Of a stretch of DNA of 64,000 nucleotides, positions 4,033-44,165 are shown one piece after another. Positions within the stretch are counted from its first letter, which is position 1, and every line of letters starts with the position of its first letter. The notes beneath the pieces are model-generated. The model was not told the origin of the DNA and made no database searches. It worked only from the letters and a program-made list of their open reading frames with translations. The stretch spans positions 85,483 to 149,482 of the IMG/VR virus record IMGVR_UViG_3300017989_000062; one strand, given 5' to 3'. This DNA comes from a virus (taxonomy: Duplodnaviria > Heunggongvirae > Uroviricota > Caudoviricetes). Made by a program: the position numbers and the translations under genes.

Positions 4033-4257
4033 ATGGCAAAGAAGCAGGGAAAGAATGCGAGTCGTCCGTCAGCTCAGAGATATAAGGCGGAGAAAAGATC
4101 AGAGTTCAACAGGCTGCGTAAACAGGAGAAGCATAAAAGAAAGGTGGAAAAACAAGCCAAACGTAAAGAAGAACAAAAATTGCGTAAATTACAAACGGAC
4201 GCTGTTAAACGACATCAAGGAGAATCAGATGGACCAGTTAATACCGAAGTTGTATAA
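4033..4257 (+). CDS. Small highly basic (K/R-rich) protein, possibly nucleic-acid binding
   Basis: GGAGG RBS 7 nt upstream of ATG. 74 aa with more than 35% K/R. Overlaps the start of the topoisomerase A-like gene by about 29 nt. Confidence 0.35.
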   Translation: MAKKQGKNASRPSAQRYKAEKRSEFNRLRKQEKHKRKVEKQAKRKEEQKLRKLQTDAVKRHQGESDGPVNTEVV

Positions 4258-5575
4258 AGCATACGGAGACTATATCAATTCTTTCAGGTCGTTTCCATTA
4301 GATCTGGATGGGTTAAAACCAGTTGAACGTAGGGTATTACTGTCTGCTTATCTGGTCGCAAGAGAGAAGTTTGCAAAATGTCCAAGGGTGGATGGAACTT
4401 GTATCGCCAGGTTCCATCCACACAGCACGACATATGGAACTATTGTCCAGTTGGCAAACCAAGGATTCTTAGAAAAACAAGGAAACTTTGGAAGTAATAT
4501 TGGAATAGAACCATCTCCACCTGCGGCTATGAGATACACAGAATGTAAACTTAATCCAAGAACATATGAACTGATGTTTAAGTATGTCAAGCATGTTCCT
4601 TGGGTTGATAGTGAATCCAAAGATGATAAAGAACCTCTTTATCTCCCTACTATGTTTCCAGTATGTCTTATTGGTCATGATTTTTCACAGGGAATTGGAT
4701 TTGGATTTCGGACGGTAATTCCTACATATTTCATTGCTGATTTACAGAAGCGACTTTTGTGGCTCCTCGGAATCAGAAAAACAAAACCTACTATTACGCC
4801 AAGATCCAATTGTCAAATAACTGCAGATCAAGCAGCATTGGAGTCGTTATTAACCACTGGAAAAGCTTCAATATCCATGAAAGGAGTTATCAAGGCAAAC
4901 GCAGCTTTATGCAAGGTTATTGTAAAATCTTGGCCGCCCGGTCGTAGATTTGAGGCAATTCTAAACAAACCAACCATCAAAAAATTGCTAGACAATCAAG
5001 ATATTGGTTTTATTGATTCTTCTGGTAAAAATGTTGGGACGGAAATTGTTTTCAGTGTTTTAAAACAAAGAAATCGAGATAAGATATACCGATCTTGTCT
5101 CAAAGCTATTCAAGCTGCTACAAGCAGTTCTGTAACATTTGAAATAACAATGACTGACATTAACAATCAGACAAGGGTTGTCTCTGTTGATGAAATGTTA
5201 ATGAATACGTTTAAAATGTATACAGAAGTCAATAAGACCATGTTAAACCATGAAATTGGAAAGACACAGAGTGCTATTGTAGAGTTAAACGCGTTAGCAG
5301 CAATTCGAGATCCATTAGCATTGATGATGCAGGCAACAGCCACATTTGGAAGTTATTCTTTAGAAAAGAAGGTCAAATTAATTTCAGATCAATCTAAAGT
5401 TGCTCAAGATGTGGTTAAGGAAATTCTTTCCAAGTATCCCATTCAAAAGTTATTGACTCTCGATACGGATACCACCAAGCTCCAAGAAAAGGTAACAGAA
5501 ATACAAGAAAGTTTAACAAATATTACTAATTTCGTCTTGGATCAATATAGTAAGGCGGGAAAGGAATTGTTATGA
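4229..5575 (+). CDS. DNA topoisomerase II A subunit-like (GyrA/T4 gp52-like)
   Basis: 'LKPVERRVLL' and the catalytic-Tyr motif 'AAMRYTE' (4524-4544). Start at MDQLIPKLY after an AAGGAG RBS; the ORF-track start at 3998 is probably an upstream extension. Confidence 0.8.
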   Translation: MDQLIPKLYKAYGDYINSFRSFPLDLDGLKPVERRVLLSAYLVAREKFAKCPRVDGTCIARFHPHSTTYGTIVQLANQGFLEKQGNFGSNIGIEPSPPAAMRYTECKLNPRTYELMFKYVKHVPWVDSESKDDKEPLYLPTMFPVCLIGHDFSQGIGFGFRTVIPTYFIADLQKRLLWLLGIRKTKPTITPRSNCQITADQAALESLLTTGKASISMKGVIKANAALCKVIVKSWPPGRRFEAILNKPTIKKLLDNQDIGFIDSSGKNVGTEIVFSVLKQRNRDKIYRSCLKAIQAATSSSVTFEITMTDINNQTRVVSVDEMLMNTFKMYTEVNKTMLNHEIGKTQSAIVELNALAAIRDPLALMMQATATFGSYSLEKKVKLISDQSKVAQDVVKEILSKYPIQKLLTLDTDTTKLQEKVTEIQESLTNITNFVLDQYSKAGKELL

Positions 5576-6066
5576 ACGGGAAGAAGGGATTTACGTTATT
5601 CGAATTATTGATGGCAATTGTGATCATTGGTGCTTTGTTAAGTTTTGTGTTAGGAACGATAAAGGACAACAAAGAAGAACTCAAAGAAGGTGTTGCTAAC
5701 ATTAAAGAAATCCTCAATGTTACATCTGAGGATGGTCATGTTTCCATTAAGATCACAACTAAACTAAATGAGAAAAGACCTGAATCGAAAACAGTGTCTG
5801 GTGGAGCAATTATAGAATGTGAACATGGTGACGGTTATGGAGACGGGAGGTCGGTTGTTTTCATTAATAAAGAGAAGTTTTATTTCGGTGAGAAAGATAG
5901 CTACGGAGATATCAAATCTTTTCCATGTTATCAACTCAAAGGTGTATTAGCAACTCAATGCCAGGATGGAGAGAGTGTTCTCTATGTTGGTAATAGAAAG
6001 TTTTATCTTGGCCACGATGATGGCTGGGGTGATTTGAACCCAATTCCATGTGATGGAGGAAAATAG
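5572..6066 (+). CDS. Type IV pilin/pseudopilin-like protein (prepilin N-terminal methylation motif)
   Basis: 'KKG|FTLFELLMAIVIIGALLSFV' matches the class III signal (G|FTLxE, with Glu at +5). The C-terminal half has two internal repeats, 'FYFGEKDSYGDIKSFPC' and 'FYLGHDDGWGDLNPIPC', each ending in Cys. Confidence 0.55.
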   Translation: MNGKKGFTLFELLMAIVIIGALLSFVLGTIKDNKEELKEGVANIKEILNVTSEDGHVSIKITTKLNEKRPESKTVSGGAIIECEHGDGYGDGRSVVFINKEKFYFGEKDSYGDIKSFPCYQLKGVLATQCQDGESVLYVGNRKFYLGHDDGWGDLNPIPCDGGK

Positions 6067-6510
6067 ATGCCAGTTTATCGAGTAAGAAAAATCTTTAAAC
6101 TACCTATCGGACACCGATTGAGTAAACACGCAGGTTTATGTAAAAATATTCATGGACATAACATCCGGTGTGAAATTCAGATTTCGTGTTCTGAGTTAAA
6201 TCTGAATGATATGGTTGTAGATTTTCATGATATTAAGACTATTGTTAGTGCAATTCTGGAACGTTTCGATCACGCTGTATTGATTAATAACAGTGATAAG
6301 GAATTTCGAAAGTTTGCACACCAATTTGGAGTTCGAACAATTATTTTGGAATGTTATGATGATGCGAATGTAGACCCAACGGCTGAGGTTCTAGCGAGGT
6401 ATCTATTTCAACATATTAGCACTGAGTTTCAGAGTTATAACCCGAAGCTGGTTTTGGATTTCGTGAGAATCTGGGAAAACGACGACGGTATGGCGGAGTA
6501 TTCGGAGTAA
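6067..6510 (+). CDS. queD: 6-pyruvoyl-tetrahydropterin / 6-carboxy-tetrahydropterin synthase (QueD/PTPS family)
   Basis: 'CKNIHGHN' (Cx3HGH zinc/catalytic motif) at 6139-6162. Size of 147 aa is typical of the family. Confidence 0.7.
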   Translation: MPVYRVRKIFKLPIGHRLSKHAGLCKNIHGHNIRCEIQISCSELNLNDMVVDFHDIKTIVSAILERFDHAVLINNSDKEFRKFAHQFGVRTIILECYDDANVDPTAEVLARYLFQHISTEFQSYNPKLVLDFVRIWENDDGMAEYSE

Positions 6511-7933: not shown

Positions 7934-8368
7934 ATGAAGTACAAAGCAAGCGAGGTGACAAATAGTTCTTCAACCTCATTTATGGTGTACATTCCACCAA
8001 ACCTTGATATTAGGAAATTTCTTCATTTAATTCCAGAACAGATACATAAGGATTATGAAGACCAATCTAAACATTATGATGGTGCTATCGATCCACTTTC
8101 AAAATTGGTTGTTGAAAGGTTCGAAATGGCTCAAGAATATGTTTCATCATCAGTTTATGATGAATCTATGTATCAAAGTGATAGAGCTTTGATGTCCATT
8201 TTACAAGAGTTAGATCTGATTATTGATGAATGGGATTCTTGTCTCGGAGGAGGACAGTTGATTAATATTGGACATTCAACTATTCAAGACGGTGTTAAAA
8301 ATATTAAAGAAGGGAATTGGGGTATTCGACATGGTGGTTGGGGATCGAAAGACGGAGACACAATATGA
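7934..8368 (+). CDS. Small acidic protein carrying the conserved N-terminal tag MKYKASEVTNSSSTSF (tag family member A)
   Basis: The N-terminal 16 aa are shared with four other ORFs in this window; the rest of the protein is unrelated to them. Confidence 0.6.
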   Translation: MKYKASEVTNSSSTSFMVYIPPNLDIRKFLHLIPEQIHKDYEDQSKHYDGAIDPLSKLVVERFEMAQEYVSSSVYDESMYQSDRALMSILQELDLIIDEWDSCLGGGQLINIGHSTIQDGVKNIKEGNWGIRHGGWGSKDGDTI

Positions 8369-12184: not shown

Positions 12185-13231
12185 ATGGATAAAATTCAGA
12201 TTGTTAGTTGGTTGCTCACCAGGCGTTGTAATTTGAGATGTTCTTACTGTGCCCTCGTTCGAAATTACAAACATATGCCAGAAAAGTATCCTCAAATGAA
12301 ACACTATCATCAACATGAGATGTCAACAGAATATGTGATTGAGGTTCTTGGTAAATTGAAGGAGCATAATCCGAATGTTTTCAATATCTTATATGGCGGC
12401 GAACCGCTTCTAAGAAAAGATTTGGCTAAGATTGTGAATTTCTGTAATGATAATGACATTCATTATACAATCATCTCAAATAATACTGAAGAGATTCAGC
12501 CATTGCTTGATGCGTTAATGGATGATGTGGAATACATTAATGGCTATACAGCATCAGTGGACCCAGTTATTGTAATGGATCCGGCAAACGTTGATCCTTA
12601 TCGTTTGGACAAAAGTCTTGCTGGTTATGCAAAACTGGTAGCTTTAAAGAAACTATTTGGATCGGATTATGTAAAAGACCCAGTAGCGGAAATCACTGTT
12701 GACAATGAGTCAGTTCCTTATCTCCACAAACTAGTCTCTTTGCTGACTGAAAATGAGATTAGTAGCGACATCACATTTGTGGATATTGCAAAGAGTCCTT
12801 ACTATGACTTCTCAAATGTTAGTGATGAGAGTCAGTTGGTTCATAGATCTGATGAACTGAGCATTCAATTTGATAAAATCATCGATGACAAATTGGATGT
12901 TCATATGGCGGACAAACTCTTGCCGGCAATGTGGAAAATTCTTCCAGCAGATATGGATTGTGAAATTGAACGTAATGTTCATAATATGACCATTGATGCT
13001 GATGGTACTGTGAGGTTGTGTTTGAGGATTCGAGGAACAGCAACTCCGACGTTAAAAGCAATCGACGCATTTACCCCAACTGGATTAAATCCTATTCTTA
13101 AGGAGCATCTCAAACGGGATAAGGAACGTTATTGTCGAGGATGCAACTGGACCTGTATGTTAATGTCCCAAATACTCATGAAACAAAGTCATTTGTATCG
13201 TGAATTAGTGCACACCGAGAGGAGAAAATGA
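12185..13231 (+). CDS. Radical SAM enzyme with a C-terminal Cys cluster (SPASM/twitch-like); anSME/peptide-maturase-like
   Basis: 'CNLRCSYC' (Cx3Cx2C, 12228-12251), 'GGEPLL', and C-terminal 'YCRGCNWTC'. At 348 aa it is longer than QueE. Confidence 0.7.
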   Translation: MDKIQIVSWLLTRRCNLRCSYCALVRNYKHMPEKYPQMKHYHQHEMSTEYVIEVLGKLKEHNPNVFNILYGGEPLLRKDLAKIVNFCNDNDIHYTIISNNTEEIQPLLDALMDDVEYINGYTASVDPVIVMDPANVDPYRLDKSLAGYAKLVALKKLFGSDYVKDPVAEITVDNESVPYLHKLVSLLTENEISSDITFVDIAKSPYYDFSNVSDESQLVHRSDELSIQFDKIIDDKLDVHMADKLLPAMWKILPADMDCEIERNVHNMTIDADGTVRLCLRIRGTATPTLKAIDAFTPTGLNPILKEHLKRDKERYCRGCNWTCMLMSQILMKQSHLYRELVHTERRK

Positions 13232-13782
13232 AATATAAAGTGAGTGAAGTCACGAATTCTTCATCAACTTCATTCTTGATGGCATTTGCAGGAAACCACA
13301 TTGGTCTGTATAAAGCAATGCTCAAATATGAAGACCATTTTAGTTTAGAAAATGACTACTGGGAGGGCGGAAAATCCACTATTGATGTATGGGATGTTAT
13401 TCAAGCGTTAGATGGAGCAATTAAATCTAATCCAGAGCAGTTATGGTTAAGACCAGAAATCAAAACGATAGATGAAGCCATCAAAGGTTTGGAGGAAGAT
13501 GCAGCATCGTGGAAAAACCAAATCCGAGAATCAGCAGAAGAAGACAAATCTGGAGATGTCACATTTGATTGGGAAAAGGAAGCTCTCCGAAAGGCAATAA
13601 GTACTCTTCACCTTTTACAAAAGGGAAAGGAGCGAGGACTCACTTCGGTTATAAAAGTTGGATTTGGTGATAATCATGGTGAAATTTCCGGAGATATTGT
13701 TGGTTGTACAATGGATTATCGTGGCCGTCATATTCGGATAGATGAATCTGATTTTATCGTAGTAACGGAGCAAAATCGATGA
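13228..13782 (+). CDS. Tag-family member B (MKYKVSEVTNSSSTSF...), acidic
   Basis: Conserved N-terminal 16-mer. Immediately downstream of the radical SAM gene with a 4-nt overlap. Confidence 0.6.
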   Translation: MKYKVSEVTNSSSTSFLMAFAGNHIGLYKAMLKYEDHFSLENDYWEGGKSTIDVWDVIQALDGAIKSNPEQLWLRPEIKTIDEAIKGLEEDAASWKNQIRESAEEDKSGDVTFDWEKEALRKAISTLHLLQKGKERGLTSVIKVGFGDNHGEISGDIVGCTMDYRGRHIRIDESDFIVVTEQNR

Positions 13783-14387
13783 AATACAAGTCGAGTGAGG
13801 TGACGAATTCATCCAGTACCAGTTTTGTAATATCAGCATATGCATCTGGGTTTGTTATGGGTATTCCCCATGATGATTTATTTATGTGGGTGGAAAAATT
13901 TTGGCCTACTGCTATCCCAAAATCATTTCTATCAATTGGTACAGAAGAGATAACAGTAGAGTTGTTGATTGAAAATTTCGATGAGGACTGGCCGGATAAC
14001 GATGGTGTTGTTTTAGTGAACTTAACCAAGGCTACAAGGAGGGTTGGTTCGACACTTTCTAAAATTGAACCGGTAACTCAAGTTATAATGCAAGCTACTG
14101 GTCCTGTTACAATAAGGGCTAAACAAAAGATTACATTTAACAAACTCCGTAATTTATATACACAAGTTTGTGAACATTGTCTGGTTGGTGATGGAGAGGG
14201 AGAATTATACTATTCTCAACAACCAGTAGATTTTTCTGGTGATGGTTGGGATGGTGGTGACCCAATGGGCGATTACGCTTATACTGACGATTGTAAAGTT
14301 GCAGAATCAATACTCACTAAGATTATATGTGTAAAACGTGACGGAGTTATAAAAATGGGGGAGGAACGGAAAGATGGCAACACCTGA
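13779..14387 (+). CDS. Tag-family member C (MKYKSSEVTNSSSTSF...), acidic
   Basis: Conserved N-terminal 16-mer. In tandem with member B with a 4-nt overlap. Confidence 0.6.
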   Translation: MKYKSSEVTNSSSTSFVISAYASGFVMGIPHDDLFMWVEKFWPTAIPKSFLSIGTEEITVELLIENFDEDWPDNDGVVLVNLTKATRRVGSTLSKIEPVTQVIMQATGPVTIRAKQKITFNKLRNLYTQVCEHCLVGDGEGELYYSQQPVDFSGDGWDGGDPMGDYAYTDDCKVAESILTKIICVKRDGVIKMGEERKDGNT

Positions 14388-14709
14388 TGATGTAATAACG
14401 AGCGCAACTGCGTTCTTTTCAAAGGTAAAGGAGGAAGATCGTGTCACCATAAAGTTTGTGAAGAAAGATGGAACAGAGAGGACAATGAAATGTACTCTTA
14501 ATTTTAATCATGTTCCATTGTCTAAACGACCGAAAGATGTAAACGTGGCAAAGATTCTTACACGATTGAACAAACATGGGATTATTAACGTATATGATCT
14601 CGAGAAGCAAGATTGGCGTAGTGTGCCGTTTAAACAAGTTCAATGGTTAGAGACAGGTGAAGAAAATCAAGTTGATCGAAAGAGGTTTAGAATACAACCA
14701 CCGAGGTGA
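14374..14709 (+). CDS. Hypothetical protein
   Basis: ORF in the operon; no recognisable motif. Confidence 0.4.
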   Translation: MATPDDVITSATAFFSKVKEEDRVTIKFVKKDGTERTMKCTLNFNHVPLSKRPKDVNVAKILTRLNKHGIINVYDLEKQDWRSVPFKQVQWLETGEENQVDRKRFRIQPPR

Positions 14710-15287
14710 AAATGAAATTCGTAACAGCAGATTACCATTTAGGACATCATGGTATTATTGAAAGTTGCGATCGACCTTTTACACAAATTAGACATATGGA
14801 TAGCGCGATCATCAGAAATCATAACAAAGTAGTTGGTGATAATGATGATGTATACATTCTTGGGGATTTCTCCATGATGACAAAAAGACATCGCGGAACT
14901 ATTGAAGGATATGTCAGTAAGTTGAAAGGCCGAAAACATCTGATTATGGGAAACCATGATGTAAAAGACCCATGGTTTTGGATAGACATGGGATTCTGGT
15001 CAGTTCATGCACCATATTTTGAACTTGAAGATTTTATTCTCGTACATGATCCTGCTCTGTCTCAAGTCTGGACAAACAAGTGGTTTCTTTGTGGGCATAT
15101 ACATACTCTATTTTACATGCAGCGAAATTGTCTGAATGTTGGAGTGGACATGCATAATTTTACACCACTAACAATAGAACAAGTGAGGGATCAAATTCAA
15201 AGATATGAGGATGGAGAACGTTATACAGCAAGAAAGTGGTTGCAGAATATGAAAAGAGAACGAGAAAGGAGTATAATGCATGGTTAG
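14706..15287 (+). CDS. Calcineurin-like metallophosphoesterase / Ser-Thr phosphatase-like
   Basis: 'ADYHLGHH' (DxH), 'ILGDFS' (GD) and 'GNHD' motifs. Confidence 0.65.
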   Translation: MKMKFVTADYHLGHHGIIESCDRPFTQIRHMDSAIIRNHNKVVGDNDDVYILGDFSMMTKRHRGTIEGYVSKLKGRKHLIMGNHDVKDPWFWIDMGFWSVHAPYFELEDFILVHDPALSQVWTNKWFLCGHIHTLFYMQRNCLNVGVDMHNFTPLTIEQVRDQIQRYEDGERYTARKWLQNMKRERERSIMHG

Positions 15288-15669: not shown

Positions 15670-15997
15670 AGATAAAGAACTTGATCAAAAAGTTAAGAAG
15701 CTTTGTGATCAAATAACAGACGAAGAAAGAGGCAAAGAAGAGTATACTGGTCCTGAAGGTCCGAATATTTTCCTATCACTTGAAGCCAGGACAACGGACA
15801 AAGAAGAGTTCTTTCTGACTCTTGAACGAGAGGAGGCTGAAAAATATATAGTGTGCTTTTACGCAAGATTTGTTGCAAGTCCTACAGGTCCGAGAAAACC
15901 CTTGAAAAGAATCAATTCATGGGAAGTCAAGGATGATAGAGCCAATAAGATTGTAAGGATGTTTGCGGAAAAGCTCAAATATGTTAGAGGTGAGTGA
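15632..15997 (+). CDS. Hypothetical acidic protein
   Basis: ORF; likely start at MMGILEQLL after a GAAGGGA RBS. Confidence 0.35.
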   Translation: MMGILEQLLSEIEDKELDQKVKKLCDQITDEERGKEEYTGPEGPNIFLSLEARTTDKEEFFLTLEREEAEKYIVCFYARFVASPTGPRKPLKRINSWEVKDDRANKIVRMFAEKLKYVRGE

Positions 15998-16017
15998 TTT
16001 CGAAAGGAGATCGAATT

Positions 16018-18531
16018 ATGATGGAAGAAATCGTGTTAAACGATTATTACGCGAGTCTTGTGATAAGCGCTGAACGAGAAGGGAATGATCCTACGTTTAC
16101 TCCATATCGGAGAAGACGAATAATAAAGATGGATGAGTTTAATCAAAGATTTGGAGAGGCAACAAATCAAGCAGGAATGATTTTGCCACAAAATACTCGA
16201 TATGTTGAACGTGTGGGTCGTCAAGGTTTACTCCTTGTTATTGAGGAATCTCCAAGAGTTCGGACCGTTAATGTTGAGATGGATATGGTTGGAACAATAG
16301 AGAAGCTCAAAATCACTGGACATTTGAAAGAGTATGGGTATGAAAACTGGTTAGAGGAGAATAAAAAAATACCATACAAATTTCGGCTTGCATTTCCTTA
16401 CATTGTATATGTGATGTTTATGGATGGAGGTTCATTAGTATCAGCTCATCCATATTACAGATTACACCCATTAACCTCTTTAGAAGATTATCTTCTTAAA
16501 CCAAATCTTCCAAATATCGGTAGTGGTGGGGCACTATGTCTTGGCTCGAATCCTCAAGATGGACATACAAAGAATCCATTTGAAGCGGCAAATGTTGCTC
16601 TTGAGAAATTCTGGGTAAATGCCTTTAATACAGATTATGCCTCAAGATATACTTCATATGATAAAATACCTTTTGTATCCGACTGGTTAACGTGGCAATA
16701 TCATACAATTCAGGATCCAATGTTTATCTATTCAGTGCCTTGGATTAAAGAACCAAAGATCTTGATAGATGCAATTAAGGATGTTATTGAAAGAGATCGA
16801 AGATATGGTACAGGTGTGGCATTAAGTTTTGACTCGTTGAGAAGCATTTTTACAAAACGAGTTCCTTCAAAAGATGACCCTATGTTTTATCATAATGTGA
16901 CTGAATCGGTTATCGTGGGTAGTGCGACGCTGGCGATTGGGGATGAAGTAGAATACCAAAAGAAACCTTACTATGTTCACTCGTTTTCTGGTAAACGACT
17001 TTGCCGTCCTGTTTCTGTCAATCTTGAAGATGATGAGGGTAATATCAAAGAAGTAAATCTTACTGCATCAACAGAAAAACAATTTGAGAAACAACTTCTT
17101 GGAGAGAAGCGACTGAAATATGTAACAGTTCAAGACCAAGAAGTGTCAGTTGGAGATATTCTGGTATTAAGTTATCCAGAAAATGCGTATCGTAAAGTAT
17201 CAAAAATACGACAAGGTAGAGATGGTAAAATTGAGGTACAATGTAATCAAACTGATTACTATCTTCTTGAGAACTTAAAATTTTCTCGATTTACTGATAA
17301 CCTAATTAACATAGATGGAGTTGAGGTTGGGAAGGATGAAGAGGTTTATCTCCTTGATATACATAACAGTTCCTCGAATCCTCTATGCGTTGGATCAAAA
17401 GTTGTTTTCTGTGGATTTTCGGATACAAGGGATGGAGTTCTTATTGGTGAGTTTAAAGATGTTGATACTGACCAGCCAGAAATCCATAGTGTTCGACTTC
17501 AGAATAGCTCAAAACGTTTGGTGAAGATGGAGGATATGTATATTCCACCAGTATATCGAATATTCTGTAATTTACATACCAATACTCCACGAGATACCCC
17601 TCAGTATCCTTTGATGAGAAAATATGGGTCTTTGACTCCACGTAGAGGCACAGAGGGTAACAGATACCATCAGGCATATGCCACAAAGAAAATCTTATCT
17701 GAAGATAAATCAGAACTTCATATTCCCGGGTTTGATATTGATATCAACTTTAAAGTTGGGGATAGTGTTGTGATCTCAGATTGGGAACATCCTTTGGAGA
17801 TGTTAAAGGTTAGAACCATTCAATCTTTTACAATAGAAGGATCGGCGTTGTTTGTCAATACAATTACCGCGAAGGGAGTTGAACGAAAAGATCTGTATAT
17901 TAACCTTATAACTGGGTGTATTTGGACTGGCACAATTCGTCATATAATGCCAGAATTTGGTGGAATAAAGGCTGGAGATAAAATACGAGCAAATACTCCT
18001 GGTATTACAATGTTCCCGAAGAAAGACACAAACACAGTTATTGGTTTCTTATCGGATTGTGGTGAAGATCATTATCCACTGATGTTGTGTTCTAACTGTT
18101 GTACACAATGGGCAAGTCCTGCAGGTCTAAGTCGATTTGATGTTATCAGAAGAGGAACTCCTCAGTGGATGAAAGCTAAAAATGCCCCAATACAAATAAG
18201 TAAAATCAAATATCAATGTGGAGATATGGTTTGTAGTTTGAATGACTCACCGCAATTTTATGTAGGAGTATATCATAAATACGGTGGAGAAGTTAGAATG
18301 ACCGATCTCAGACAATGGGGTACAGGATATTATAACGATATTACTGAATACACTCGTGAACGTTGGAGAAGAGTAGGATTCATATCTCCTCGTTATCAAC
18401 AAAGAGTGTTGGGTGAGTTAAGACGCAGACAAAAAGCGGGGTTTTCAAATCTACATAACGGTTTTACTCCATATCCAACAACAGAAAATCGATACAGGGA
18501 GGACTGGGATTATGTTCAATGTCTGGATTAA
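16018..18531 (+). CDS. Large (about 837 aa) protein of unknown function heading the JAB/E1/E2 operon; contains a possible divergent UBC-like motif
   Basis: AAGGAG RBS before MMEEIVLN. 'VYVMFMDGGSLVSAHPYYRLHP...IGSGGALCLGS' (about 16440-16560) loosely resembles the E2 HPN...G.ICL core. Confidence 0.45.
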   Translation: MMEEIVLNDYYASLVISAEREGNDPTFTPYRRRRIIKMDEFNQRFGEATNQAGMILPQNTRYVERVGRQGLLLVIEESPRVRTVNVEMDMVGTIEKLKITGHLKEYGYENWLEENKKIPYKFRLAFPYIVYVMFMDGGSLVSAHPYYRLHPLTSLEDYLLKPNLPNIGSGGALCLGSNPQDGHTKNPFEAANVALEKFWVNAFNTDYASRYTSYDKIPFVSDWLTWQYHTIQDPMFIYSVPWIKEPKILIDAIKDVIERDRRYGTGVALSFDSLRSIFTKRVPSKDDPMFYHNVTESVIVGSATLAIGDEVEYQKKPYYVHSFSGKRLCRPVSVNLEDDEGNIKEVNLTASTEKQFEKQLLGEKRLKYVTVQDQEVSVGDILVLSYPENAYRKVSKIRQGRDGKIEVQCNQTDYYLLENLKFSRFTDNLINIDGVEVGKDEEVYLLDIHNSSSNPLCVGSKVVFCGFSDTRDGVLIGEFKDVDTDQPEIHSVRLQNSSKRLVKMEDMYIPPVYRIFCNLHTNTPRDTPQYPLMRKYGSLTPRRGTEGNRYHQAYATKKILSEDKSELHIPGFDIDINFKVGDSVVISDWEHPLEMLKVRTIQSFTIEGSALFVNTITAKGVERKDLYINLITGCIWTGTIRHIMPEFGGIKAGDKIRANTPGITMFPKKDTNTVIGFLSDCGEDHYPLMLCSNCCTQWASPAGLSRFDVIRRGTPQWMKAKNAPIQISKIKYQCGDMVCSLNDSPQFYVGVYHKYGGEVRMTDLRQWGTGYYNDITEYTRERWRRVGFISPRYQQRVLGELRRRQKAGFSNLHNGFTPYPTTENRYREDWDYVQCLD

Positions 18532-19675
18532 TGATGGGACTACAGAGATGCCTTCCGACGATATTCTATACATTGTCTCAAAAGAAGGCATCTTCTTAAA
18601 GAAAAAACTAGGGTTGTTTGAAAGCATGGCTCCTGTAGACGGTATCAGTATTCTGAATGAGCTTGAATCTTATGCACATATGGATATTTACCAGATTCCA
18701 GGAAAGATGTTCTCTCAAGTTTTGTATTTCTTCATTGCTGTTCTCAAAGAATACAAAGGAGAAGCAAATGTTATTATTCATTATAATCAAACCACTGGAA
18801 ACTATAAGTTTGAAATACCAGAGCAAAAGGTTGCTCCAGCGGGAACTGCATATGAAAGTGAGGTGAGTTATAAAAACTTTGTAAGATTAGGAACAATTCA
18901 TAGTCATTGTAATTTCTCAGCTTTTCATTCTCCAACTGATAAGGGTGATGAAGCAACATGGGATGGTTTACATATTACCATCGGAGATATTTTTAAACCA
19001 GCCTTCTCATGTACGGCATCTATTGTAGCAAATGGAACAAGGTTTGTGGTCAATCCAACAGACTATGTTGAAGGGTTGGAGCTTACAGAAGTTGAAACAA
19101 TAACTAATCCTCAGTACGCTGCATATCTGGAAAGGGAAGGAAAGGAAATTCCAGAAACTATGATTAAAAAGACGCTTGGATATAAAATCAATGTTGATGC
19201 AAAAGGATATCCAGCCAAATGGATGTCCAGCATATCCAAGAAGGAATACAAACCTGTTGTATATGGCTCAAATGGAGATCGAAGATATGGACATTGGGGA
19301 CAATGGCATCGAGATGTTCGACAACCAGGACTTTTTGATGGTACTGGAAACACAGTATTTCCAGATCAATCAATGTTGATTCCAGATCCAGGAAAGTCAT
19401 ATTCTGATCTTCTCTTTCGACAGTTTGGGGGAACGGAATGGAATCCCTGTGAGGAATGTCCTTATAAGAATCACAAGGTTGATTTACTTATGGAATCTAT
19501 TCTAGAAGAGCTTGATCTAGATGACGACCAACTTGAAAAACTTGGTTTTGAGGTTGATGATGAACAAACTGAACTGAATAGTGACGAACCTCATAACTAT
19601 ATTCCAGAGCATTATCAACAAGAAGGGTTTAGGACACCTGAAGAAGCCATTAACGGAGGTGTGCATGAGGATTAA
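18512..19675 (+). CDS. JAB/MPN+ (JAMM) metalloprotease, deubiquitinase-like
   Basis: Exact JAMM signature HxHx7Sx2D in 'HSHCNFSAFHSPTD' (about 18893-18934), with an upstream Glu. Confidence 0.65.
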   Translation: MFNVWINDGTTEMPSDDILYIVSKEGIFLKKKLGLFESMAPVDGISILNELESYAHMDIYQIPGKMFSQVLYFFIAVLKEYKGEANVIIHYNQTTGNYKFEIPEQKVAPAGTAYESEVSYKNFVRLGTIHSHCNFSAFHSPTDKGDEATWDGLHITIGDIFKPAFSCTASIVANGTRFVVNPTDYVEGLELTEVETITNPQYAAYLEREGKEIPETMIKKTLGYKINVDAKGYPAKWMSSISKKEYKPVVYGSNGDRRYGHWGQWHRDVRQPGLFDGTGNTVFPDQSMLIPDPGKSYSDLLFRQFGGTEWNPCEECPYKNHKVDLLMESILEELDLDDDQLEKLGFEVDDEQTELNSDEPHNYIPEHYQQEGFRTPEEAINGGVHED

Positions 19676-20450
19676 AATTATTGGTTTGGGTGGAGTTGGT
19701 ACATATCTCTGTGATGCATTATGTAGATACTTAAACTATGGAGAAGCTTCTGATATCATTGTTACGATGGTTGATGGAGATTCATACGAGCAAAAGAATC
19801 TACAACGGCAGGTATTCACCGATTTTGGAAATAAAGCTGAAACAAAGAAAGCAGATATGCAGGAGCTTTATGACCGACTGAAGTTTGAGAACATTAACTC
19901 TTTCGTAAATTCAGAAAACATTAGGAGGATAGTGTACAGTGGTGATATCGTGTTTGTGTGTGTTGATAACCATCAGACGAGAAAAGTTGTTTCTGATTAT
20001 GCAACAACCTTGGACGATATTACAATAATTTCGGGCGGTAATGAATTTACCGACGGTAATGTCCAAATTTATGTGAGGAAAGGAGGCATTGATATTACGC
20101 CATCACTTACGGACTACCACCCGGAAATTGAAACCCCAGGTGACCGGTCACCTGAGGATATGGGGTGTGAAGAATTGGCAAAGGCAGCACCACAGCTTTT
20201 GTTTACCAACCTAACAGTAGCTACGATTATGTGTTGGGTATTCTACGCACTTATTCTGCAAAAAGATCCAGTTGCATTTGCAGAGATTTATTTTGACCTT
20301 GAGACCATGAGCGTGAGATCTCAAATCAGAAAACCAGTAACGAAAGGAGTTCGATCGAATGACCAAAGTAACGTTGAACGAAAAGACAGTAGCGGAACTA
20401 CGCCAAATGTGTCGGGATCAGGATATTCCTGGTATGAGCAAGAAGCGTAA
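19665..20450 (+). CDS. ThiF/MoeB/E1-like adenylyltransferase (E1-like subunit a)
   Basis: Rossmann 'IIGLGGVGTYL' and 'DGDSYEQKNLQRQVF', which is ThiF-family Dx-D...NLxRQ. GGAGG RBS before MRIKIIGLGG. Confidence 0.65.
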   Translation: MRIKIIGLGGVGTYLCDALCRYLNYGEASDIIVTMVDGDSYEQKNLQRQVFTDFGNKAETKKADMQELYDRLKFENINSFVNSENIRRIVYSGDIVFVCVDNHQTRKVVSDYATTLDDITIISGGNEFTDGNVQIYVRKGGIDITPSLTDYHPEIETPGDRSPEDMGCEELAKAAPQLLFTNLTVATIMCWVFYALILQKDPVAFAEIYFDLETMSVRSQIRKPVTKGVRSNDQSNVERKDSSGTTPNVSGSGYSWYEQEA

Positions 20451-20850
20451 GGATGTCATCATTGACGCAATTTTGAAAGCCAACAGGACAACAACCAAGG
20501 CAGCTTCTTCTGGAAGAAAGAAGGCTGGACATATGGCTGCGTTGGCAACACAAGCTGGTGTGGAACAAGTTACCAAGGCTGATTTCCAAATGTCAAGCGT
20601 TTTGACTCATCCATCGAAAAAGCCTGGGGATAGATGTACCACGGCTATTCGAGTATCCTGTGGCGCCAACTCTGGCAAGTTCCCAGTGACTGGCAAGACA
20701 GTCGGGGCAGTTGGTGAGTTCTTGAGGGAAGTCCTCAATGTTGATAGACTCGCCGAGGGTATTGTAAACGGTGACAAGGTTGACGGAGCTTACGTTCTCA
20801 AAGATGGGGATGATCTTGAGTTCTTGAAACCCGCAGGCCGTAAAGGCTAG
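20359..20850 (+). CDS. SAP/Rho-N-like domain fused to a ThiS/MoaD-like beta-grasp (ubiquitin-like) domain
   Basis: The N-terminal 'TVAELRQMCRDQDIPGMSKKRKDVIIDAIL' has a SAP/HeH pattern. The C-terminal 'VNGDKVDGAYVLKDGDDLEFLKPAGRKG*' resembles the ThiS/MoaD end 'NG..V....LKDGDEV.i.PPVSGG'. AAGGAG RBS. Confidence 0.55.
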   Translation: MTKVTLNEKTVAELRQMCRDQDIPGMSKKRKDVIIDAILKANRTTTKAASSGRKKAGHMAALATQAGVEQVTKADFQMSSVLTHPSKKPGDRCTTAIRVSCGANSGKFPVTGKTVGAVGEFLREVLNVDRLAEGIVNGDKVDGAYVLKDGDDLEFLKPAGRKG

Positions 20851-21584: not shown

Positions 21585-22460
21585 GTGGAGAAAGTGGCGA
21601 TTGTAGGGTGCGGTAGTTTGGGTAGTCATTTAGCACAAAGTCTCTCAGAGCTTGACGAAGTGAAAGAACTCGTGTTGATTGATCACGATAAGGTTGAGAA
21701 GAGAAATCTCAGAAACGCGTGTTTTAGAAAAGGAGATATTGGAACATATAAAACAGAAGCAGTATGCTCGTCAATTACACAAAGAAGAGATGATATTGTG
21801 TTGACAGCTGTAAATGAGAAGTTTCTTGAAGGACAAACCCCAATACCAGAGTGTGATCTGGTTATTGATTGCAGAGATTATGTATATGATCGAAAGGGTA
21901 GCATTCATGTTCGAATGTATATGTCTTCAAGATATCTAATTGTTGATGGCCGACAAGATGTCGAGTATGCTGCAAATCATCAAGGACGTTATTTACATAA
22001 ACTCACCAAAACAGATCTTAGAGTGGCAGCATTTAGTGCTTCTACTTTAATACAAAAAGGTCTCATTTCAGATATTATCAACAAACAACTTATCCATAAA
22101 ATTGAGTTGGATTATCTCAATCGTGATATAGCACAAAGTATGGCACTTGTTAGAAGAGCGCCGGATGAAATTTTGGAATATCAAGATGGAGAAAAGAAAC
22201 TCACCAACCTTTATGAAAATCTACCTCGAATAAAAGAGATGAATCAAATGAATCCAGTCTTCATATTCGTAGGTAGTAAGGATTATCCAATCGTTAAACG
22301 AAAAATACCGGCAGGGTCAATACGAGATTCAAATGACGCAATTGCCTGCTTGATTTCCTCACTCGACTTACCTTTTGTATTTAACACTTACATAGTATCA
22401 CCTGGCTGTGATAATGGTTGTCATTACGTAGAGTTAATAGCAGAAACAGGAGCAGCATAA
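21585..22460 (+). CDS. ThiF/E1-like adenylyltransferase (E1-like subunit b; GTG start)
   Basis: 'VAIVGCGSLGSHLAQ' Rossmann and 'LIDHDKVEKRNLRNACF'. GGAGG RBS before the GTG start. Confidence 0.6.
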   Translation: MEKVAIVGCGSLGSHLAQSLSELDEVKELVLIDHDKVEKRNLRNACFRKGDIGTYKTEAVCSSITQRRDDIVLTAVNEKFLEGQTPIPECDLVIDCRDYVYDRKGSIHVRMYMSSRYLIVDGRQDVEYAANHQGRYLHKLTKTDLRVAAFSASTLIQKGLISDIINKQLIHKIELDYLNRDIAQSMALVRRAPDEILEYQDGEKKLTNLYENLPRIKEMNQMNPVFIFVGSKDYPIVKRKIPAGSIRDSNDAIACLISSLDLPFVFNTYIVSPGCDNGCHYVELIAETGAA

Positions 22461-26238: not shown

Positions 26239-29200
26239 TTGAAATTTGTTAATCCGATGTTTAAACCTAAGGAAGATAACATCTTTCTTATACGACAACG
26301 GGAATTTGATGCATTAGAATCCACAATTCTTCAAATATTGCAACCAGTTGTTGATATTGGTTTTGAAATTGTGGATTTCGGCATTAAAGATCCAAAAATG
26401 GCATCAGGAGAATTACAACCAACCCTTAGAAAGAATTTAATTATCAAATTACAAAGAGGGACGTCAAACATTGATCTCTCTATGCAAATACCAGCTCTAA
26501 TTGATGACAACTATATTATCATCAATGGAAGAAAGAAAATCCCTCTGTTTCAATTATTTGATATTCCTGTTGTGACAAGGGGGAAAGCAATTAAAATTAG
26601 AACTAACGTCGCTACTATGATGTTGTTTGAGGAAAAGAATCCACCCTACGTCTATCTTAGTATATTGGGAAAAAGGGTTCCATTCTGTATGATTATGTTT
26701 GCGAAGTATGGTTATGAAGTATTAGATAGTCGATTTGATTTTGCGAATCTCGATCCATCGTTGGATACGATTTACGGAAAGCTTCTATATGATTTGAAAC
26801 TAATGTATGAAGCTGGAGAATCTACCCAAGTGGACATCTTTCGAGAAATTGGTAGAATCTACTCCAAGTATAACTTCTTGGCGAAGGGTGAAACATTACT
26901 CTATGCTCTCGACATCATGCTTGCAGTAGATCCATACTCTGCAAAATTCTTTAAGACAGATTCCGTTATTGAGGAATTTATCGACGTTATGCAGAATCCA
27001 GATTACGATGATACCGACTATCAAAATAAAAGAATCAGGTGTTTTGAGTATGCCGTAGCATCAAAGGTTTCCAAAGCTGTATTTGATTTATGTCTTGCTC
27101 ACAGAACCACAAGAAATGCCAAATTCAATGTCAACTCAACAAAAATACTGACTGAATGCAATGTGTCTGATATTGTTCAGTTCGATTTCTCTATTAATCC
27201 AATTGAAGAGTTAACCAAACTTTCAAGAACTAGTTTGGTAGGACCTGGTGGATTTAAACGAGAAAATGTTCCTGAGCATCTCAGAGATCTTAGCGACACA
27301 ATGTTTGGTCGAATGTGTCCTGTTGATACTCCTGATCGAGATAACTGCGGAGTATTGCAGAATCTTTTAGTTAACACAAAGTTTGACGAGAATCTCAGAT
27401 TTACAAATGAAACTCTTGTGGATGCACCAATCTCTATCCCAGTATCAATGGTTCCATTTCTCGAACATGATGATCAGACCAGACTGCAAATGGCTTCTTC
27501 ACAGATGAGACAAGCTGTATTGTTAAAGAAGTTTGATACACCAATGGTCCAATCTGGGTGTGAAGGATTATATACAGATCATACTCAGTTTGTAAAACTT
27601 GCTAAGAAAAATGGAGAAGTTGTTTATATCAATGACAAACATATGATCGTTGTTTATGATGACAAATCTATTGACATCTTCAACGTTGGATATCGAAAAA
27701 TCTATGTTGAAAACATGGATTTAATTAATGTATATGTCAAACAGGGAGATAAGTTCAAAGCAGGTGATATACTTGCTGAAAGCAACTATTGTACCGATGG
27801 TAGTATAAACATTGGTAAAAATTTACTTACGGGAGTTATGATCTATTATGGTCATAATTATGAGGATGGTATTGTTATCTCAGACAGGTTGGTAAATGAT
27901 GGGTCTTTTACATCAGTACATTATAGAGACTTCTCATTCACATTACCACCAGATAAGGTTCTTCTGAGTCTTGAAGAAGATTCATATAAACCTCTACCTG
28001 ATGTATTTGACAAGGTTACGATTGGTTCTACGTACGCTATTATGAAGAAGGTTCCACAGGGTCCAACAGACTTCTGTTCAATCTTTGAAGAGCCGATTGA
28101 ACTTACAACAAAAAAGTCCGTAGTAATTACTGAAGTTAACATTTACCCCAATACATGGAATGAAGGTATTCCAGAGTTTAAAGATTGGGTTGAAGCAAAA
28201 ATTGAAACTCAATTACAAAAAGAGAAAGAAATACAAGACATATTAAAGTCTCACTTACCAAAAGAAGTTGTGTCAAGATATATTAGAGACAATGGATTCG
28301 ATAAGAGTAGTTTTGTTAGAAAATACAAGGTGAAGAAAGAAAAGGTTAATGGTATACAAGTTGAGATGTATGGTATATACACTCGCAAAATACAAGTTGG
28401 AGATAAGATCGGAAATCGGCATGGTAACAAAGGTGTTATTTCAACTATAGTTCCTCATGAAATGATGCCCCAACTAGCTGATGGACGACATGTAGATATT
28501 TGCATTAACCCACTCGGAATTATCAGTCGAATGAACATTGGTCAATTATTTGAATTACATTTGAGCATGGCTTTAGATGATCTCAAGAAGAATCTTTTGA
28601 AAATGATAGAGAATAAACAAGGTCAAGCACAACTTAAATTATATTTAACTGGTTTTTACAAGGCAATTGATAATACAAAAACTGGTTGGTATACAAAACA
28701 ATATATGGAGCAAATACCCGAAGTCATTGATAAAGACTTTGTTGAGCATCTTACAGTAATACAACCGCCATTTGAATCTGTTACTGCAACCATGCTTGAA
28801 GAAGTTCTAAAGTATACAGAAACATCATTTGAACAGAAACTCTTAGATCCAGTTTCTGGACAACATTTGTTAAATACTGTCGCAGTTGGGTTCATGTACT
28901 TCTTTAGAATGGTTCATATTGCTGAGTCAAGATTAGCAGCGAGAGGGATTGGATCATATGCAAGAAGAACATTACAACCGTTAGCCGGGAGAAAAAATAA
29001 AGGTGGACAAAGACTTGGTGAAATGGAAACAGCATGTCTAATTGCTCACGATGCACCATACAATATAGCTGAATTCTTAACTACAAAATCAGACTGTATT
29101 GATATGAAAAATAGATTTCTTAGAAATACAATTGAAACTGACTTACTAAAAGATGAAAGCAATGGGGATTCAATAGTGGCTGAATCAGTTAAGTTACTTG

Positions 29201-29280
29201 AAGCCTATTTGCTTGCGATTGGAGTGCAGCCAAATGACAGACGTCAAACACAAACCGAGGATAGCGGTATACGCGGGTAG
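26239..29280 (+). CDS. Multisubunit RNA polymerase beta-like subunit (unsplit)
   Basis: 'GDKIGNRHGNKGVIS' matches bacterial beta 'GDKxAGRHGNKGVIS' (about 28408-28440). GGGAGGAGG RBS with TTG at 26239 or ATG at 26257 as possible starts; the ORF-track start at 26077 is likely too far upstream. Confidence 0.85.
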   Translation: MKFVNPMFKPKEDNIFLIRQREFDALESTILQILQPVVDIGFEIVDFGIKDPKMASGELQPTLRKNLIIKLQRGTSNIDLSMQIPALIDDNYIIINGRKKIPLFQLFDIPVVTRGKAIKIRTNVATMMLFEEKNPPYVYLSILGKRVPFCMIMFAKYGYEVLDSRFDFANLDPSLDTIYGKLLYDLKLMYEAGESTQVDIFREIGRIYSKYNFLAKGETLLYALDIMLAVDPYSAKFFKTDSVIEEFIDVMQNPDYDDTDYQNKRIRCFEYAVASKVSKAVFDLCLAHRTTRNAKFNVNSTKILTECNVSDIVQFDFSINPIEELTKLSRTSLVGPGGFKRENVPEHLRDLSDTMFGRMCPVDTPDRDNCGVLQNLLVNTKFDENLRFTNETLVDAPISIPVSMVPFLEHDDQTRLQMASSQMRQAVLLKKFDTPMVQSGCEGLYTDHTQFVKLAKKNGEVVYINDKHMIVVYDDKSIDIFNVGYRKIYVENMDLINVYVKQGDKFKAGDILAESNYCTDGSINIGKNLLTGVMIYYGHNYEDGIVISDRLVNDGSFTSVHYRDFSFTLPPDKVLLSLEEDSYKPLPDVFDKVTIGSTYAIMKKVPQGPTDFCSIFEEPIELTTKKSVVITEVNIYPNTWNEGIPEFKDWVEAKIETQLQKEKEIQDILKSHLPKEVVSRYIRDNGFDKSSFVRKYKVKKEKVNGIQVEMYGIYTRKIQVGDKIGNRHGNKGVISTIVPHEMMPQLADGRHVDICINPLGIISRMNIGQLFELHLSMALDDLKKNLLKMIENKQGQAQLKLYLTGFYKAIDNTKTGWYTKQYMEQIPEVIDKDFVEHLTVIQPPFESVTATMLEEVLKYTETSFEQKLLDPVSGQHLLNTVAVGFMYFFRMVHIAESRLAARGIGSYARRTLQPLAGRKNKGGQRLGEMETACLIAHDAPYNIAEFLTTKSDCIDMKNRFLRNTIETDLLKDESNGDSIVAESVKLLEAYLLAIGVQPNDRRQTQTEDSGIRG

Positions 29281-29845
29281 TTTTGACCCACCAACTAATG
29301 GACACCAATGGGTTATCAATCAAGGAGCACACCTGTTTGATAAACTTCTTATTGCAATCGGTATAAACCCAGAAAAGAAATCTTACTTTAGCCAGTTTGA
29401 ACGTTTGGCGATGATGAGTCAAATGGCTTCAATCTACCCAAACGTTCAAGCTGTGGTTTTAGGAAATGAGTATTTAGTTGACTTTGCAGCTTCACACAAA
29501 GCGAACTATATTCTTCGAGGGATTCGTTCTAGAACAGACTTTGCTTTTGAAAATACAATGAGACAATTTAATGGCGGGTTGAAACCATGGATAAACTCGG
29601 TGTTTCTTATCCCGCCTGCATCATTAATTAATGTAAGTTCTAGCACCATTAAAGGTTTAATCGGTCCCAAGGGTTGGCAAGAGGTTGTCAAAAAGTTCGT
29701 GCCAGAAAATGTGTTTGAAGCTATATCAAACAAACACAAGGAGAAAACAGATGTCTCAAAAGTCCGACCAATCAGTACCGACCCCCTCTTCTTCAGAGCT
29801 ACCAGACATTCAGGAGACGACACCAAAAATAAAAAGACCGATTAA
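29234..29845 (+). CDS. coaD: Phosphopantetheine adenylyltransferase (CoaD/PPAT family nucleotidyltransferase)
   Basis: 'RIAVYAGSFDPPTNGHQW' (GxFDPxTxGH) and 'ILRGIRSRTDFAFE...SVFLIPP...SSSTIKGL' are collinear with E. coli CoaD. The real C-terminus is probably near ...FEAISNK, and the ORF tail overlaps the next gene. Confidence 0.7.
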   Translation: MTDVKHKPRIAVYAGSFDPPTNGHQWVINQGAHLFDKLLIAIGINPEKKSYFSQFERLAMMSQMASIYPNVQAVVLGNEYLVDFAASHKANYILRGIRSRTDFAFENTMRQFNGGLKPWINSVFLIPPASLINVSSSTIKGLIGPKGWQEVVKKFVPENVFEAISNKHKEKTDVSKVRPISTDPLFFRATRHSGDDTKNKKTD

Positions 29846-42559: not shown

Positions 42560-42569
42560 TTATTGAATA

Positions 42570-42600
42570 AAGTGGGGACTCTGAAACGGGTCCCCACTAA
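42570..42600 (+). terminator. Stem-loop / terminator candidate
   Basis: AGTGGGGAC...GTCCCCACT 9-bp stem. Confidence 0.45.
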
Positions 42601-42615
42601 ACTGGAGGTGACTGT

Positions 42616-43008: not shown

Positions 43009-43033
43009 AAAGTGATCGAAAGGAGATCAAAAG

Positions 43034-44152: not shown

Positions 44153-44165
44153 TGGTCTGAGGAGT

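Follow-up and report, generated by a model that had tools for sequence, protein, structure and literature searches.

The DNA considered here, hereafter the window, is a stretch of 64,000 nucleotides (nt) of a Caudoviricetes virus (IMG/VR record IMGVR_UViG_3300017989_000062, positions 85,483 to 149,482). At 12185-14387 it carries a gene for a radical S-adenosylmethionine (SAM) protein, rSAM1, followed by genes B and C, whose products start with the same Ser/Thr-rich segment, referred to below as the tag. The tag is a genuine portable N-terminal module under protein-level selection, borne by at least 15 mutually unrelated families of small proteins in hundreds of uncultured large phages. Its conserved genomic partner is probably not rSAM1 but a second radical SAM enzyme, rSAM2, encoded just past the end of the window. 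The flagged region joins two things of different origin: rSAM1 on the one hand, tag genes B and C on the other. It is plausible, if somewhat short of probable, that rSAM2 recognises the tag or modifies it and would thereby mature many phage proteins; we infer this enzyme–substrate relation and its chemistry from sequence, predicted structure and synteny, on which the functional statements throughout are based.

A portable tag on unrelated small proteins

The genes that carry the argument are as follows.

rSAM1: 12185-13231, plus strand; 348 aa, radical SAM protein with a predicted twitch/SPASM-like C-terminal Cys domain.
Tag protein A: 7934-8368, plus strand; cluster 1, in the helicase-Mre11 slot.
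Tag protein B: 13228-13782, plus strand; 184 aa, cluster 4, starts MKYKVSEVTNSSSTSF.
Tag protein C: 13779-14387, plus strand; 202 aa, cluster 9, with a GDGWDGGDPxG motif.
Tag protein D: 38405-38809, plus strand; cluster 0, remnant of an ancestral tag array.
Tag protein E: 40857-41234, plus strand; cluster 5, immediately 5' of an SPFH/Band_7 gene.
rSAM2: window-equivalent ~65547-66734, plus strand (4041-5228 of L245, minus strand; given also as ~4041-5132, minus strand, of contig ERZ27256770 k141_823530); ~1.5 kb past the window end.
Tag gene F: window-equivalent ~66694-67056, plus strand (3719-4081 of L245, minus strand); sixth tag gene, starts MKYKITEVTNSSSANF.

The overlapping layout of rSAM1, B and C that an earlier note had described from the sequence is borne out in its coordinates and junctions. 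The TGA of rSAM1 (13229-13231) and the ATG of B (13228) share an ATGA, as do the stop of B (13780-13782) and the ATG of C (13779), and a Shine-Dalgarno sequence, GAGAGGAG, lies upstream of the B start. A six-frame scan of the window for proteins starting MK[YF]K.SE[VI]TNSSS[ST][ST]F returned five, A to E, all with a SEVTNSSSTSF-type tag at the extreme N-terminus (window consensus MKYKxSEVTNSSSTSF) and each from a different tag cluster. The DNA of these five tags differs by synonymous changes, including switches between AGY and TCN serine codons, and the flanks do not align, from which it follows that the repeat is maintained by selection at the protein level. The same synonymous differences rule out a DNA-level repeat or chance.

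The note had regarded the Ser/Thr-rich tag as a conserved element, and it is indeed a shared module, present in five window proteins and hundreds elsewhere. A HMMER search with the five window proteins against 1.84 billion cluster representatives yielded 122 representatives of 116-205 aa, almost all matching from residue 1. In total, 250 unique tag proteins (median 129 aa) were collected from 164 loci, always with the tag at residue 1. Their generalised consensus is M-K-I-K-x-D-F-[VI]-T-N-S-S-S-[TSAC]-S-[FY]-[IVL]-[VIL], or MKIKxDFVTNSSS[ST]SF in short form, and the sole feature common to the family is the 16-residue pattern M-K-x-K-x-[D/S]-[F/E]-[V/I]-T-N-S-S-S-[S/T]-x-[F/Y]. Once the tag is stripped off, BLAST groups the proteins into 36 clusters, of which 15 have at least two members. 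HHalign comparisons among the 14 largest gave a median probability of 0.3%, with only three pairs above 40%, which rules out a single divergent domain family behind the tag proteins.

Database searches place the bodies of these proteins nowhere. Pfam matched 0 of 48 tag representatives, scans of the representatives with PHROG and NCBIfam gave only noise, and the tag profile found no match among PDB sequences; phrog_7397, a family whose function is not known, weakly matches five tag members. The system to which these hundreds of proteins without a Pfam or PDB relative belong, found essentially only in uncultured phages, represents a piece of viral dark matter of some size. Two readings of the tag itself were rejected by sequence inspection: a type IV prepilin signal, as no hydrophobic helix follows, and a PglB-type N-glycosylation sequon, as the acidic residue stands at the wrong spacing.

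Protein B illustrates the anatomy of the module. Its orthologs are 34-55% identical, with T9, N10, S11, S12, S13 and T14 invariant and a C-terminal FGDNxG...MDYxGR motif. In an AlphaFold2 (AF2) model with a predicted local distance difference test score (pLDDT) of 89, residues 1-10 are disordered and strand 1 begins at residue 13. The tag is accordingly modelled as a flexible N-terminal half, of about the first ten residues, and a Ser-rich start of the first beta-strand. A fold search with the B model in PDB and BFVD found no relative, and Pfam, PHROG and NCBIfam scans of B and C returned noise only.

In the clade of the window phage, every tag paralog has S6-E7 instead of D6-F7. A change made in concert by all paralogs argues for a common trans-acting partner.

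rSAM2 as the genomic partner of the tag

The linkage between rSAM2 and the tag was assessed in 62 non-redundant rSAM2-seeded IMG/VR loci, with a downstream flank of up to 6 kb; such locus-based counts cover the matches listed and are hence lower bounds at genome level. A same-strand tag gene lies downstream of rSAM2 within 100 nt in 27/62 loci, within 1.5 kb in 47/62 (76%) and anywhere in the flank in 51/62. Upstream, a tag gene occurs within 1.5 kb in 2/62 loci (3%), and a single opposite-strand tag gene was seen in all of them together. The synteny is polar as well as frequent, and the first downstream position is taken by at least nine tag subfamilies, so the link is to the tag and not to one particular body. 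In most of the related phages, rSAM2 stands at the head of several tag genes in tandem. In the window phage, the 3' end of rSAM2 shares 44 nt with tag gene F, which brings the tag genes of this genome to at least six.

Searches seeded from the other side agree with this. Homologs of rSAM2 were present in 44/118 tag-seeded and 15/24 B-seeded loci, compared with 15/118 and 0/24 for rSAM1. The earlier proposal that the tag is tied to a radical SAM/SPASM enzyme holds as regards the enzyme family, but the enzyme concerned is rSAM2, outside the window, and not the flagged rSAM1.

The sequence of rSAM2 points to the same broad class as peptide-modifying enzymes. It contains a CHNNCSFC motif (Cx3Cx2C) and, towards its C-terminus, four conserved Cys with a C-x17-C hairpin among them; its N-terminus bears a conserved extension of ~45 residues. 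Its best PDB sequence matches are SuiB and SkfB, which are maturases of peptides that are made on ribosomes and modified after translation (RiPPs), and the twitch region of BtrN. The family comprises 1,859 matches at E <= 1e-5, the best-scoring all 326-366 aa long; Pfam SPASM is present in some homologs, and one is named radical SAM/SPASM by NCBI. The relation of rSAM2 to rSAM1 is remote (HH probability 88%, 17% identity). In the S6-E7 clade, two rSAM2 copies carry 3 and 11 private changes at columns conserved to at least 95%, against a family median of 1, and share the private sites N160 and G181; they are 54% identical to each other, versus 82% for the rSAM1 of the same clade.

Among GTDB species genomes, rSAM2 occurs on five contigs of metagenome-assembled genomes only, with inconsistent taxonomy, and these are most likely mis-binned phage DNA. 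Vibrio phage D479 (OZ195776) encodes an rSAM2-like gene and a tag protein starting MKIRNGFVSNSSSSSF (VPHD479_0104 and VPHD479_0110), with the tag gene ~1.4 kb upstream of the rSAM2-like gene; no rSAM1 homolog was found in this phage. As D479 is a GenBank phage with a named Vibrio association, it makes the question experimentally approachable, provided that an isolate is available.

Synteny also suggests how the tag genes of the window came to be scattered. A related 207-kb phage (L328) has the order FolE2...RtcB-rSAM2-tag array-Band_7-...-TerL, and the window has FolE2...D...E-Band_7-...-TerL; in related phages the array ends at the position of E, before the SPFH/Band_7 gene. This comparison identifies D and E as marking the ancestral array site. 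On this reconstruction the array was broken up in the window phage: D and E stayed in place, rSAM2 and F moved together, and B and C landed behind rSAM1.

Proposed role of the tag and the evidence against it

In the proposed mechanism, the N-terminal half of the tag, which is exposed, would be bound by rSAM2 much like a leader, and rSAM2 would then carry out radical hydrogen abstraction on a residue of the invariant T-N-S-S-S stretch, with oxidation, epimerisation or a cross-link as possible outcomes. By acting on one short segment, it would mature a whole set of phage proteins. A wider and more tentative form of this proposal takes the TNSSS tag as the acceptor or leader for radical SAM modification of 5-10 structurally unrelated phage proteins, with the main part played by rSAM2 and possibly a second, tailoring one by rSAM1; this would amount to a new maturation class in thousands of uncultured large phages.

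Several observations weigh against this role of rSAM2. The tag matches no known radical SAM substrate motif: it contains no Cys, no (C/S)xPxR and no aromatic residue conserved in all lineages. Synteny is no proof of an enzyme–substrate relation, and the co-variation of rSAM2 with the tag comes from one clade. In 11/62 rSAM2 loci the downstream flank (<=6 kb) holds no tag gene, and a canonical RiPP recognition element (RRE) domain was not seen in rSAM2, only the ~45-residue N-terminal extension. Cultured T4-like Slopekvirus phages (e.g., Klebsiella phage Matisse, NC_028750, gp164) encode a distant rSAM2 homolog of 28% identity that bears a radical SAM/SPASM annotation, and no tag genes lie downstream of it; the enzyme family as a whole is thus not tied to the tag. 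Finally, tag genes of at least five subfamilies stand beside rSAM1 in about a third of the phages, and rSAM1 may possibly have a role too.

A different explanation dispenses with radical SAM chemistry altogether and regards the tag as a sorting or propeptide signal, cleaved after delivery of diverse small proteins to the prohead or another compartment, in the manner of the T4 capsid targeting sequence. This is unlikely. In T4, the targeting sequence is an N-terminal propeptide of 10-19 residues on otherwise unrelated internal proteins (PMC9026906, PMC3012670). The sequences compared were MKTYQEFIAE (IPII, IPIII) and MKTFKEFTSTTTPVSTITE (IPI), which share an M-K-x-x-x-acidic-F-x-[hydroxyl-rich] format with MKIKTDFVTNSSS; in the same way, the format of the tag resembles MKTYQEFIAE and MKTFKEFTSTTT. 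The disorder predicted for residues 1-10 of B, the concerted change of the tag in all paralogs of one genome, with the trans-acting partner that it implies, and the T4-type terminase, baseplate, topoisomerase II and Mre11/Rad50 of the window phage fit such a signal too. The likeness, however, amounts to 3 identities in 10 residues, including the common MK start, and the conserved Glu of a gp21-type cleavage site is absent. A prohead protease and a scaffold were not found in the window, and the tag subfamilies are conserved orthologous sets rather than hypervariable ones. The strong polar linkage to rSAM2 is left unexplained. A capsid signal is compatible with modification by rSAM2, so the two ideas do not exclude each other.

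rSAM1 and a possible GTP-derived pathway

The enzyme flagged in the window is a radical SAM protein with, as far as its sequence indicates, one twitch/SPASM-like auxiliary-cluster domain. It scores above the gathering cutoff for Pfam Radical_SAM (PF04055; 4e-12, 47.1 bits, cutoff 29.5) and carries the SAM-cluster motif C15-x3-C19-x2-C22, conserved in at least 119/120 homologs. Both this Cx3Cx2C motif and the C-terminal YCRGCNWTC cluster (C317, C320, C324) had been pointed out before, and their Cys prove conserved across 120 homologs, in which C15, C19, C22, C87, C259, C279, C317, C320 and C324 are invariant or nearly so. The core begins at residue 1, with no N-terminal domain, and no PqqD-like RRE match was obtained in rSAM1 or in the seven neighbours scanned.

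A SPASM domain follows the motif Cx9-15Gx4C - gap - Cx2Cx5Cx3C - gap - C and binds two auxiliary clusters, whereas a twitch domain, as in BtrN, MoaA, SkfB and BlsE, is a truncated SPASM in which a beta-hairpin Cx..Gx4C and a downstream Cx2C supply four ligands for one cluster. In rSAM1, the segment C259-x14-G-x4-C279 is the SPASM/twitch hairpin signature, followed by a Cx2Cx3C (C317, C320, C324) without the terminal Cys. The first half of the seven-Cys motif of SPASM (PF13186/TIGR04085) is exact and the rest is incomplete, and Pfam SPASM was not reported for rSAM1 at E <= 1. The Cys pattern would fit the twitch type, and the nearest folds include BlsE, SkfB and MoaA (TM-score ~0.5). The assignment of rSAM1 to the SPASM/twitch type in the earlier note thus stands for a twitch/SPASM-like domain and falls for a full SPASM profile or motif.

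Narrower classification of rSAM1 fails. In the NCBIfam scan no family reached its cutoff: the best partial models, NirJ, viperin, PapB, MoaA and QueE-Clost, gave 30-42 bits against cutoffs of 180-650, and anSME is absent from the 25 best matches shown. The PapB and QhpD models align across the full length. Foldseek neighbours of the AF2 model (pLDDT 93.4) are BlsE, SkfB, CteB, PqqE, MoaA, SuiB, DesII, EpeE and viperin, all at a TM-score of ~0.5. The family has 854 matches at E <= 0.001, nearly all on metagenomic contigs, of which the best 120 are 328-364 aa long and mostly 50-60% identical. Neither the DNA of the region nor the rSAM1 protein found a match in INPHARED, and no GenBank phage homolog of rSAM1 was found.

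The gene lies in a strongly conserved neighbourhood. Twenty rSAM1-seeded loci share the order QueD-helicase-Mre11-Rad50-rSAM1-WYL_2-...-845-aa protein-...-ThiF-ThiF, with WYL_2 adjoining rSAM1 in 20/20 of them and in 37 fetched loci overall. The window members of interest are these.

WYL_2 (SH3-like) small protein: 14374-14709, plus strand; Pfam PF10902, 9e-10, conserved downstream neighbour of rSAM1.
QueD/6-pyruvoyl-tetrahydropterin synthase (PTPS): 6067-6510, plus strand; Pfam PTPS, 1.4e-31, syntenic in rSAM1 loci.
Cytidylyltransferase-like protein: 29198-29845, plus strand; beside FolE2.
GTP cyclohydrolase FolE2: 29685-30671, plus strand; Pfam GCHY-1, 1.5e-56.

rSAM1 is a core, vertically inherited gene of the replication module in a large clade of uncultured phages. 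This widespread module also carries QueD/PTPS.

This context lends some weight to a function unrelated to tags, in which rSAM1 acts with QueD/PTPS and FolE2 on a GTP-derived small molecule or nucleotide, either as a replacement of QueE in a 7-deazaguanine pathway or in a MoaA-like manner. QueD/PTPS belongs to the same conserved module in nearly all rSAM1 loci, FolE2 (29685-30671) has a cytidylyltransferase-like gene alongside, and the module of which rSAM1 is itself a core gene serves DNA metabolism. Among PDB sequences, the rSAM1 profile matches MoaA best (E = 1e-5), a GTP-using radical SAM enzyme with a C-terminal substrate-binding cluster. BlsE and DesII, which are nucleoside and sugar-nucleotide enzymes, and viperin are among the structural neighbours. 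Such a function is nevertheless rather improbable, because the named enzymes fit poorly. MoaA is marked by a C-terminal Cx2Cx13C cluster and a GG tail; its model TIGR02666 gives 34 bits against a cutoff of 284, and the Cys spacing of rSAM1 differs. QueE has ~210-250 aa and no auxiliary cluster, unlike rSAM1 with its conserved Cys domain. The QueE model TIGR03963 reaches 30.3 bits against a cutoff of 260 and covers only residues 11-110, the QueE-like PHROG (1.2e-4) likewise matches just the generic N-terminal core, and QueE ranks 42nd in the fold search. A tblastn search with phage 9g proteins of the window and ~1.8 Mb of related loci detected no QueC (Gat-QueC), DpdA or canonical QueE, only QueD and one FolE; the GTP-derived pathway of the window phage appears incomplete or non-canonical. 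The earlier note was right that rSAM1 is not QueE, as the profile score and fold rank confirm. Its dismissal of that alternative was sound with regard to the missing QueE signature and too quick with regard to context, given the QueD/PTPS and FolE2 genes of the window.

Tag genes beside rSAM1

It is decidedly unlikely that rSAM1 itself modifies B, C and other tag proteins, whether alone or as a second tailoring enzyme after rSAM2. The ATGA overlaps chain rSAM1 to B and B to C, the twitch/SPASM-like domain has its nearest folds among the peptide maturases SkfB, CteB, SuiB and PqqE, and the full-length alignment to the PapB and QhpD models points in the same direction. A tag gene is directly adjacent to rSAM1 in 15/46 rSAM1-seeded loci, with several subfamilies and often tight spacing, and rSAM1, rSAM2 and tags occur together on many large contigs.

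A control based on other slots of the same module weighs heavily against this role. Tag genes occupy the helicase-Mre11 slot in 8/14 loci, the Rad50-rSAM1 slot in 7/16, the rSAM1-WYL_2 slot in 2/17 and the other slots in none; both loci with a filled rSAM1-WYL_2 slot come from the window clade. Tags are therefore no more attached to rSAM1 than to Mre11, and the adjacency that had suggested rSAM1 as the partner of the tag is no commoner than in a slot of this module free of radical SAM genes. The adjacent genes lie mostly directly upstream and are for the most part orthologs from a single subfamily, cluster 7, which points to a small number of independent events; members of cluster 9, the type of C, occur 1-3 genes upstream of rSAM1 in other phages. 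No tag gene was detected within 10 kb in 5/17 non-redundant rSAM1-seeded loci.

Further evidence concerns the partners themselves. The three-gene arrangement, whose conservation in related phages the note had proposed as a check, does not recur: rSAM1-B-C was found in the window phage only, and two sister contigs keep rSAM1-B without C. Elsewhere, B orthologs stand behind rSAM2; they form part of tandem arrays with 4-6 tag genes, and rSAM1 is more than 10 kb away. The rSAM1 of the clade with the changed tags shows no unusual substitutions; a single private one (D139) at conserved columns equals the family median and is uninformative, and the copies are 82% identical. rSAM1 also lacks an N-terminal recognition domain, and Vibrio phage D479 has a tag gene without rSAM1.

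Other genes of the window phage

The window belongs to a 156-kb metagenomic contig. The phage encodes T4-type topoisomerase II, a helicase, Mre11/Rad50, a large terminase and baseplate proteins, and also multisubunit RNA polymerase beta and beta' and two ThiF/E1-like proteins in addition to FolE2 and QueD/PTPS.

Several neighbours of rSAM1 deserve mention. Between WYL_2 and the next core gene lies a metallophosphoesterase (14706-15287, plus strand; phrog_547, 7e-39), found at that position in the window clade only (L001, L002), with a homolog elsewhere in the locus in L016. The ~845-aa protein (15994-18531, plus strand) and the following gene (18512-19675, plus strand) are core genes of the replication module without a Pfam or PHROG match; relatives of the second product have 390-600 aa and start MFKV..NDG.QE.PDDDI. 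The ThiF/E1-like pair flanks a Rho_N (SAP-like) protein (19581-20450, 20359-20850 and 21585-22460, plus strand), and nearly all related phages keep the pair downstream of rSAM1.

Farther away, HNH or homing-endonuclease-like genes lie at 2-1114, 1111-1758 and 33292-33816 (plus strand); one is immediately 5' of the gene for the large topoisomerase II subunit, and another HNH protein of the window pairs a C2H2 zinc finger with the HNH domain. Immediately before QueD/PTPS, 5572-6066 (plus strand) encodes a type IV pilin-like protein with the N-terminus MNGKKG/FTLFELLMAIVIIGALL (Pfam N_methyl, 2.9e-6), for which tblastn found matches in only 4 fetched related loci. The gene at 35262-36032 (plus strand), which nine related loci also have, matches the uncharacterised family DUF7873 strongly (1.5e-65). 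A local GC peak (0.49 versus ~0.37) at 42001-44300 spans a DUF932-like gene (43034-44152); an antisense open reading frame within it (43322-44236, 304 aa) is probably spurious.

Comparison with known systems

In the searchable library, no relevant paper turned up on the tag strings or on SPASM or RiPP systems encoded by phages. Enzymes of 7-deazaguanine clusters in phages offer one likeness, namely a radical SAM enzyme, QueE, in a phage coding for FolE and QueD. rSAM1 exceeds QueE in length by ~100 aa and, unlike QueE, possesses a conserved auxiliary Cys domain; QueC and DpdA were not found in the window or the related loci searched.

The T4 capsid targeting sequence (IPI, IPII, IPIII, Alt) is likewise a short tag at the extreme N-terminus of unrelated small proteins in a T4-type phage. 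It takes its proteins to the scaffold core, and the T4 prohead protease cleaves it after (L/I)-x-E. Here, no protease site or protease was identified in the window, and the tag differs further in being conserved among phages that are far more distant from one another, and in its linkage to a radical SAM gene.

The SPASM radical SAM enzyme anSME offers a precedent, in that it has no RRE domain and yet acts on a full-size protein, converting Ser or Cys to formylglycine; by analogy, a Ser-rich target would be conceivable. This analogy, drawn in the earlier note, does not extend to the tag, which lacks the substrate motif (C/S)-x-(P/A)-x-R and its narrower form (C/S)xPxR. The enzymes differ as well: anSME has a seven-Cys SPASM domain with two auxiliary clusters, compared with five C-terminal Cys in rSAM1, whose SPASM motif is incomplete, and four in rSAM2.

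The SPASM/twitch RiPP maturases SuiB, SkfB, CteB, PqqE and PapB resemble the enzymes described here in combining a radical SAM core with a C-terminal, Cys-rich auxiliary-cluster domain. In their loci, too, an enzyme gene is followed by same-strand genes with a common N-terminal segment and variable remainders. Unlike RiPP precursors, the putative substrates here are not short peptides but folded proteins, 90-230 aa in length and drawn from at least 15 families with no relation to one another, and the conserved segment, compared with RiPP leaders, is only 16 residues long and merges into the first beta-strand. The present system further differs from RiPP systems in having no canonical RRE and no Cys or aromatic cross-link motif, and in being phage-encoded, with no transporter or leader protease seen.

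A further organisational parallel is with Nif11/NHLP-type families, in which, as Haft et al. reportedly described in 2010, many paralogous precursors share one leader and one maturase. As in those families, there are many paralogs per genome, with a conserved N-terminal region and divergent remainders, clustered beside a single maturase. Nif11/NHLP leaders have ~70 aa and are cleaved to release short peptides, whereas here a whole folded domain takes the place of the 'core' and the system resides in phages. If the tag is indeed a radical SAM substrate, RiPP logic would be extended to folded proteins. It would be the first case in phages of a single maturase that uses a short portable N-terminal tag to mark many folded proteins unrelated to one another, and it would represent a new type of protein modification in phage biology and possibly provide a compact tag–enzyme pair as a tool.

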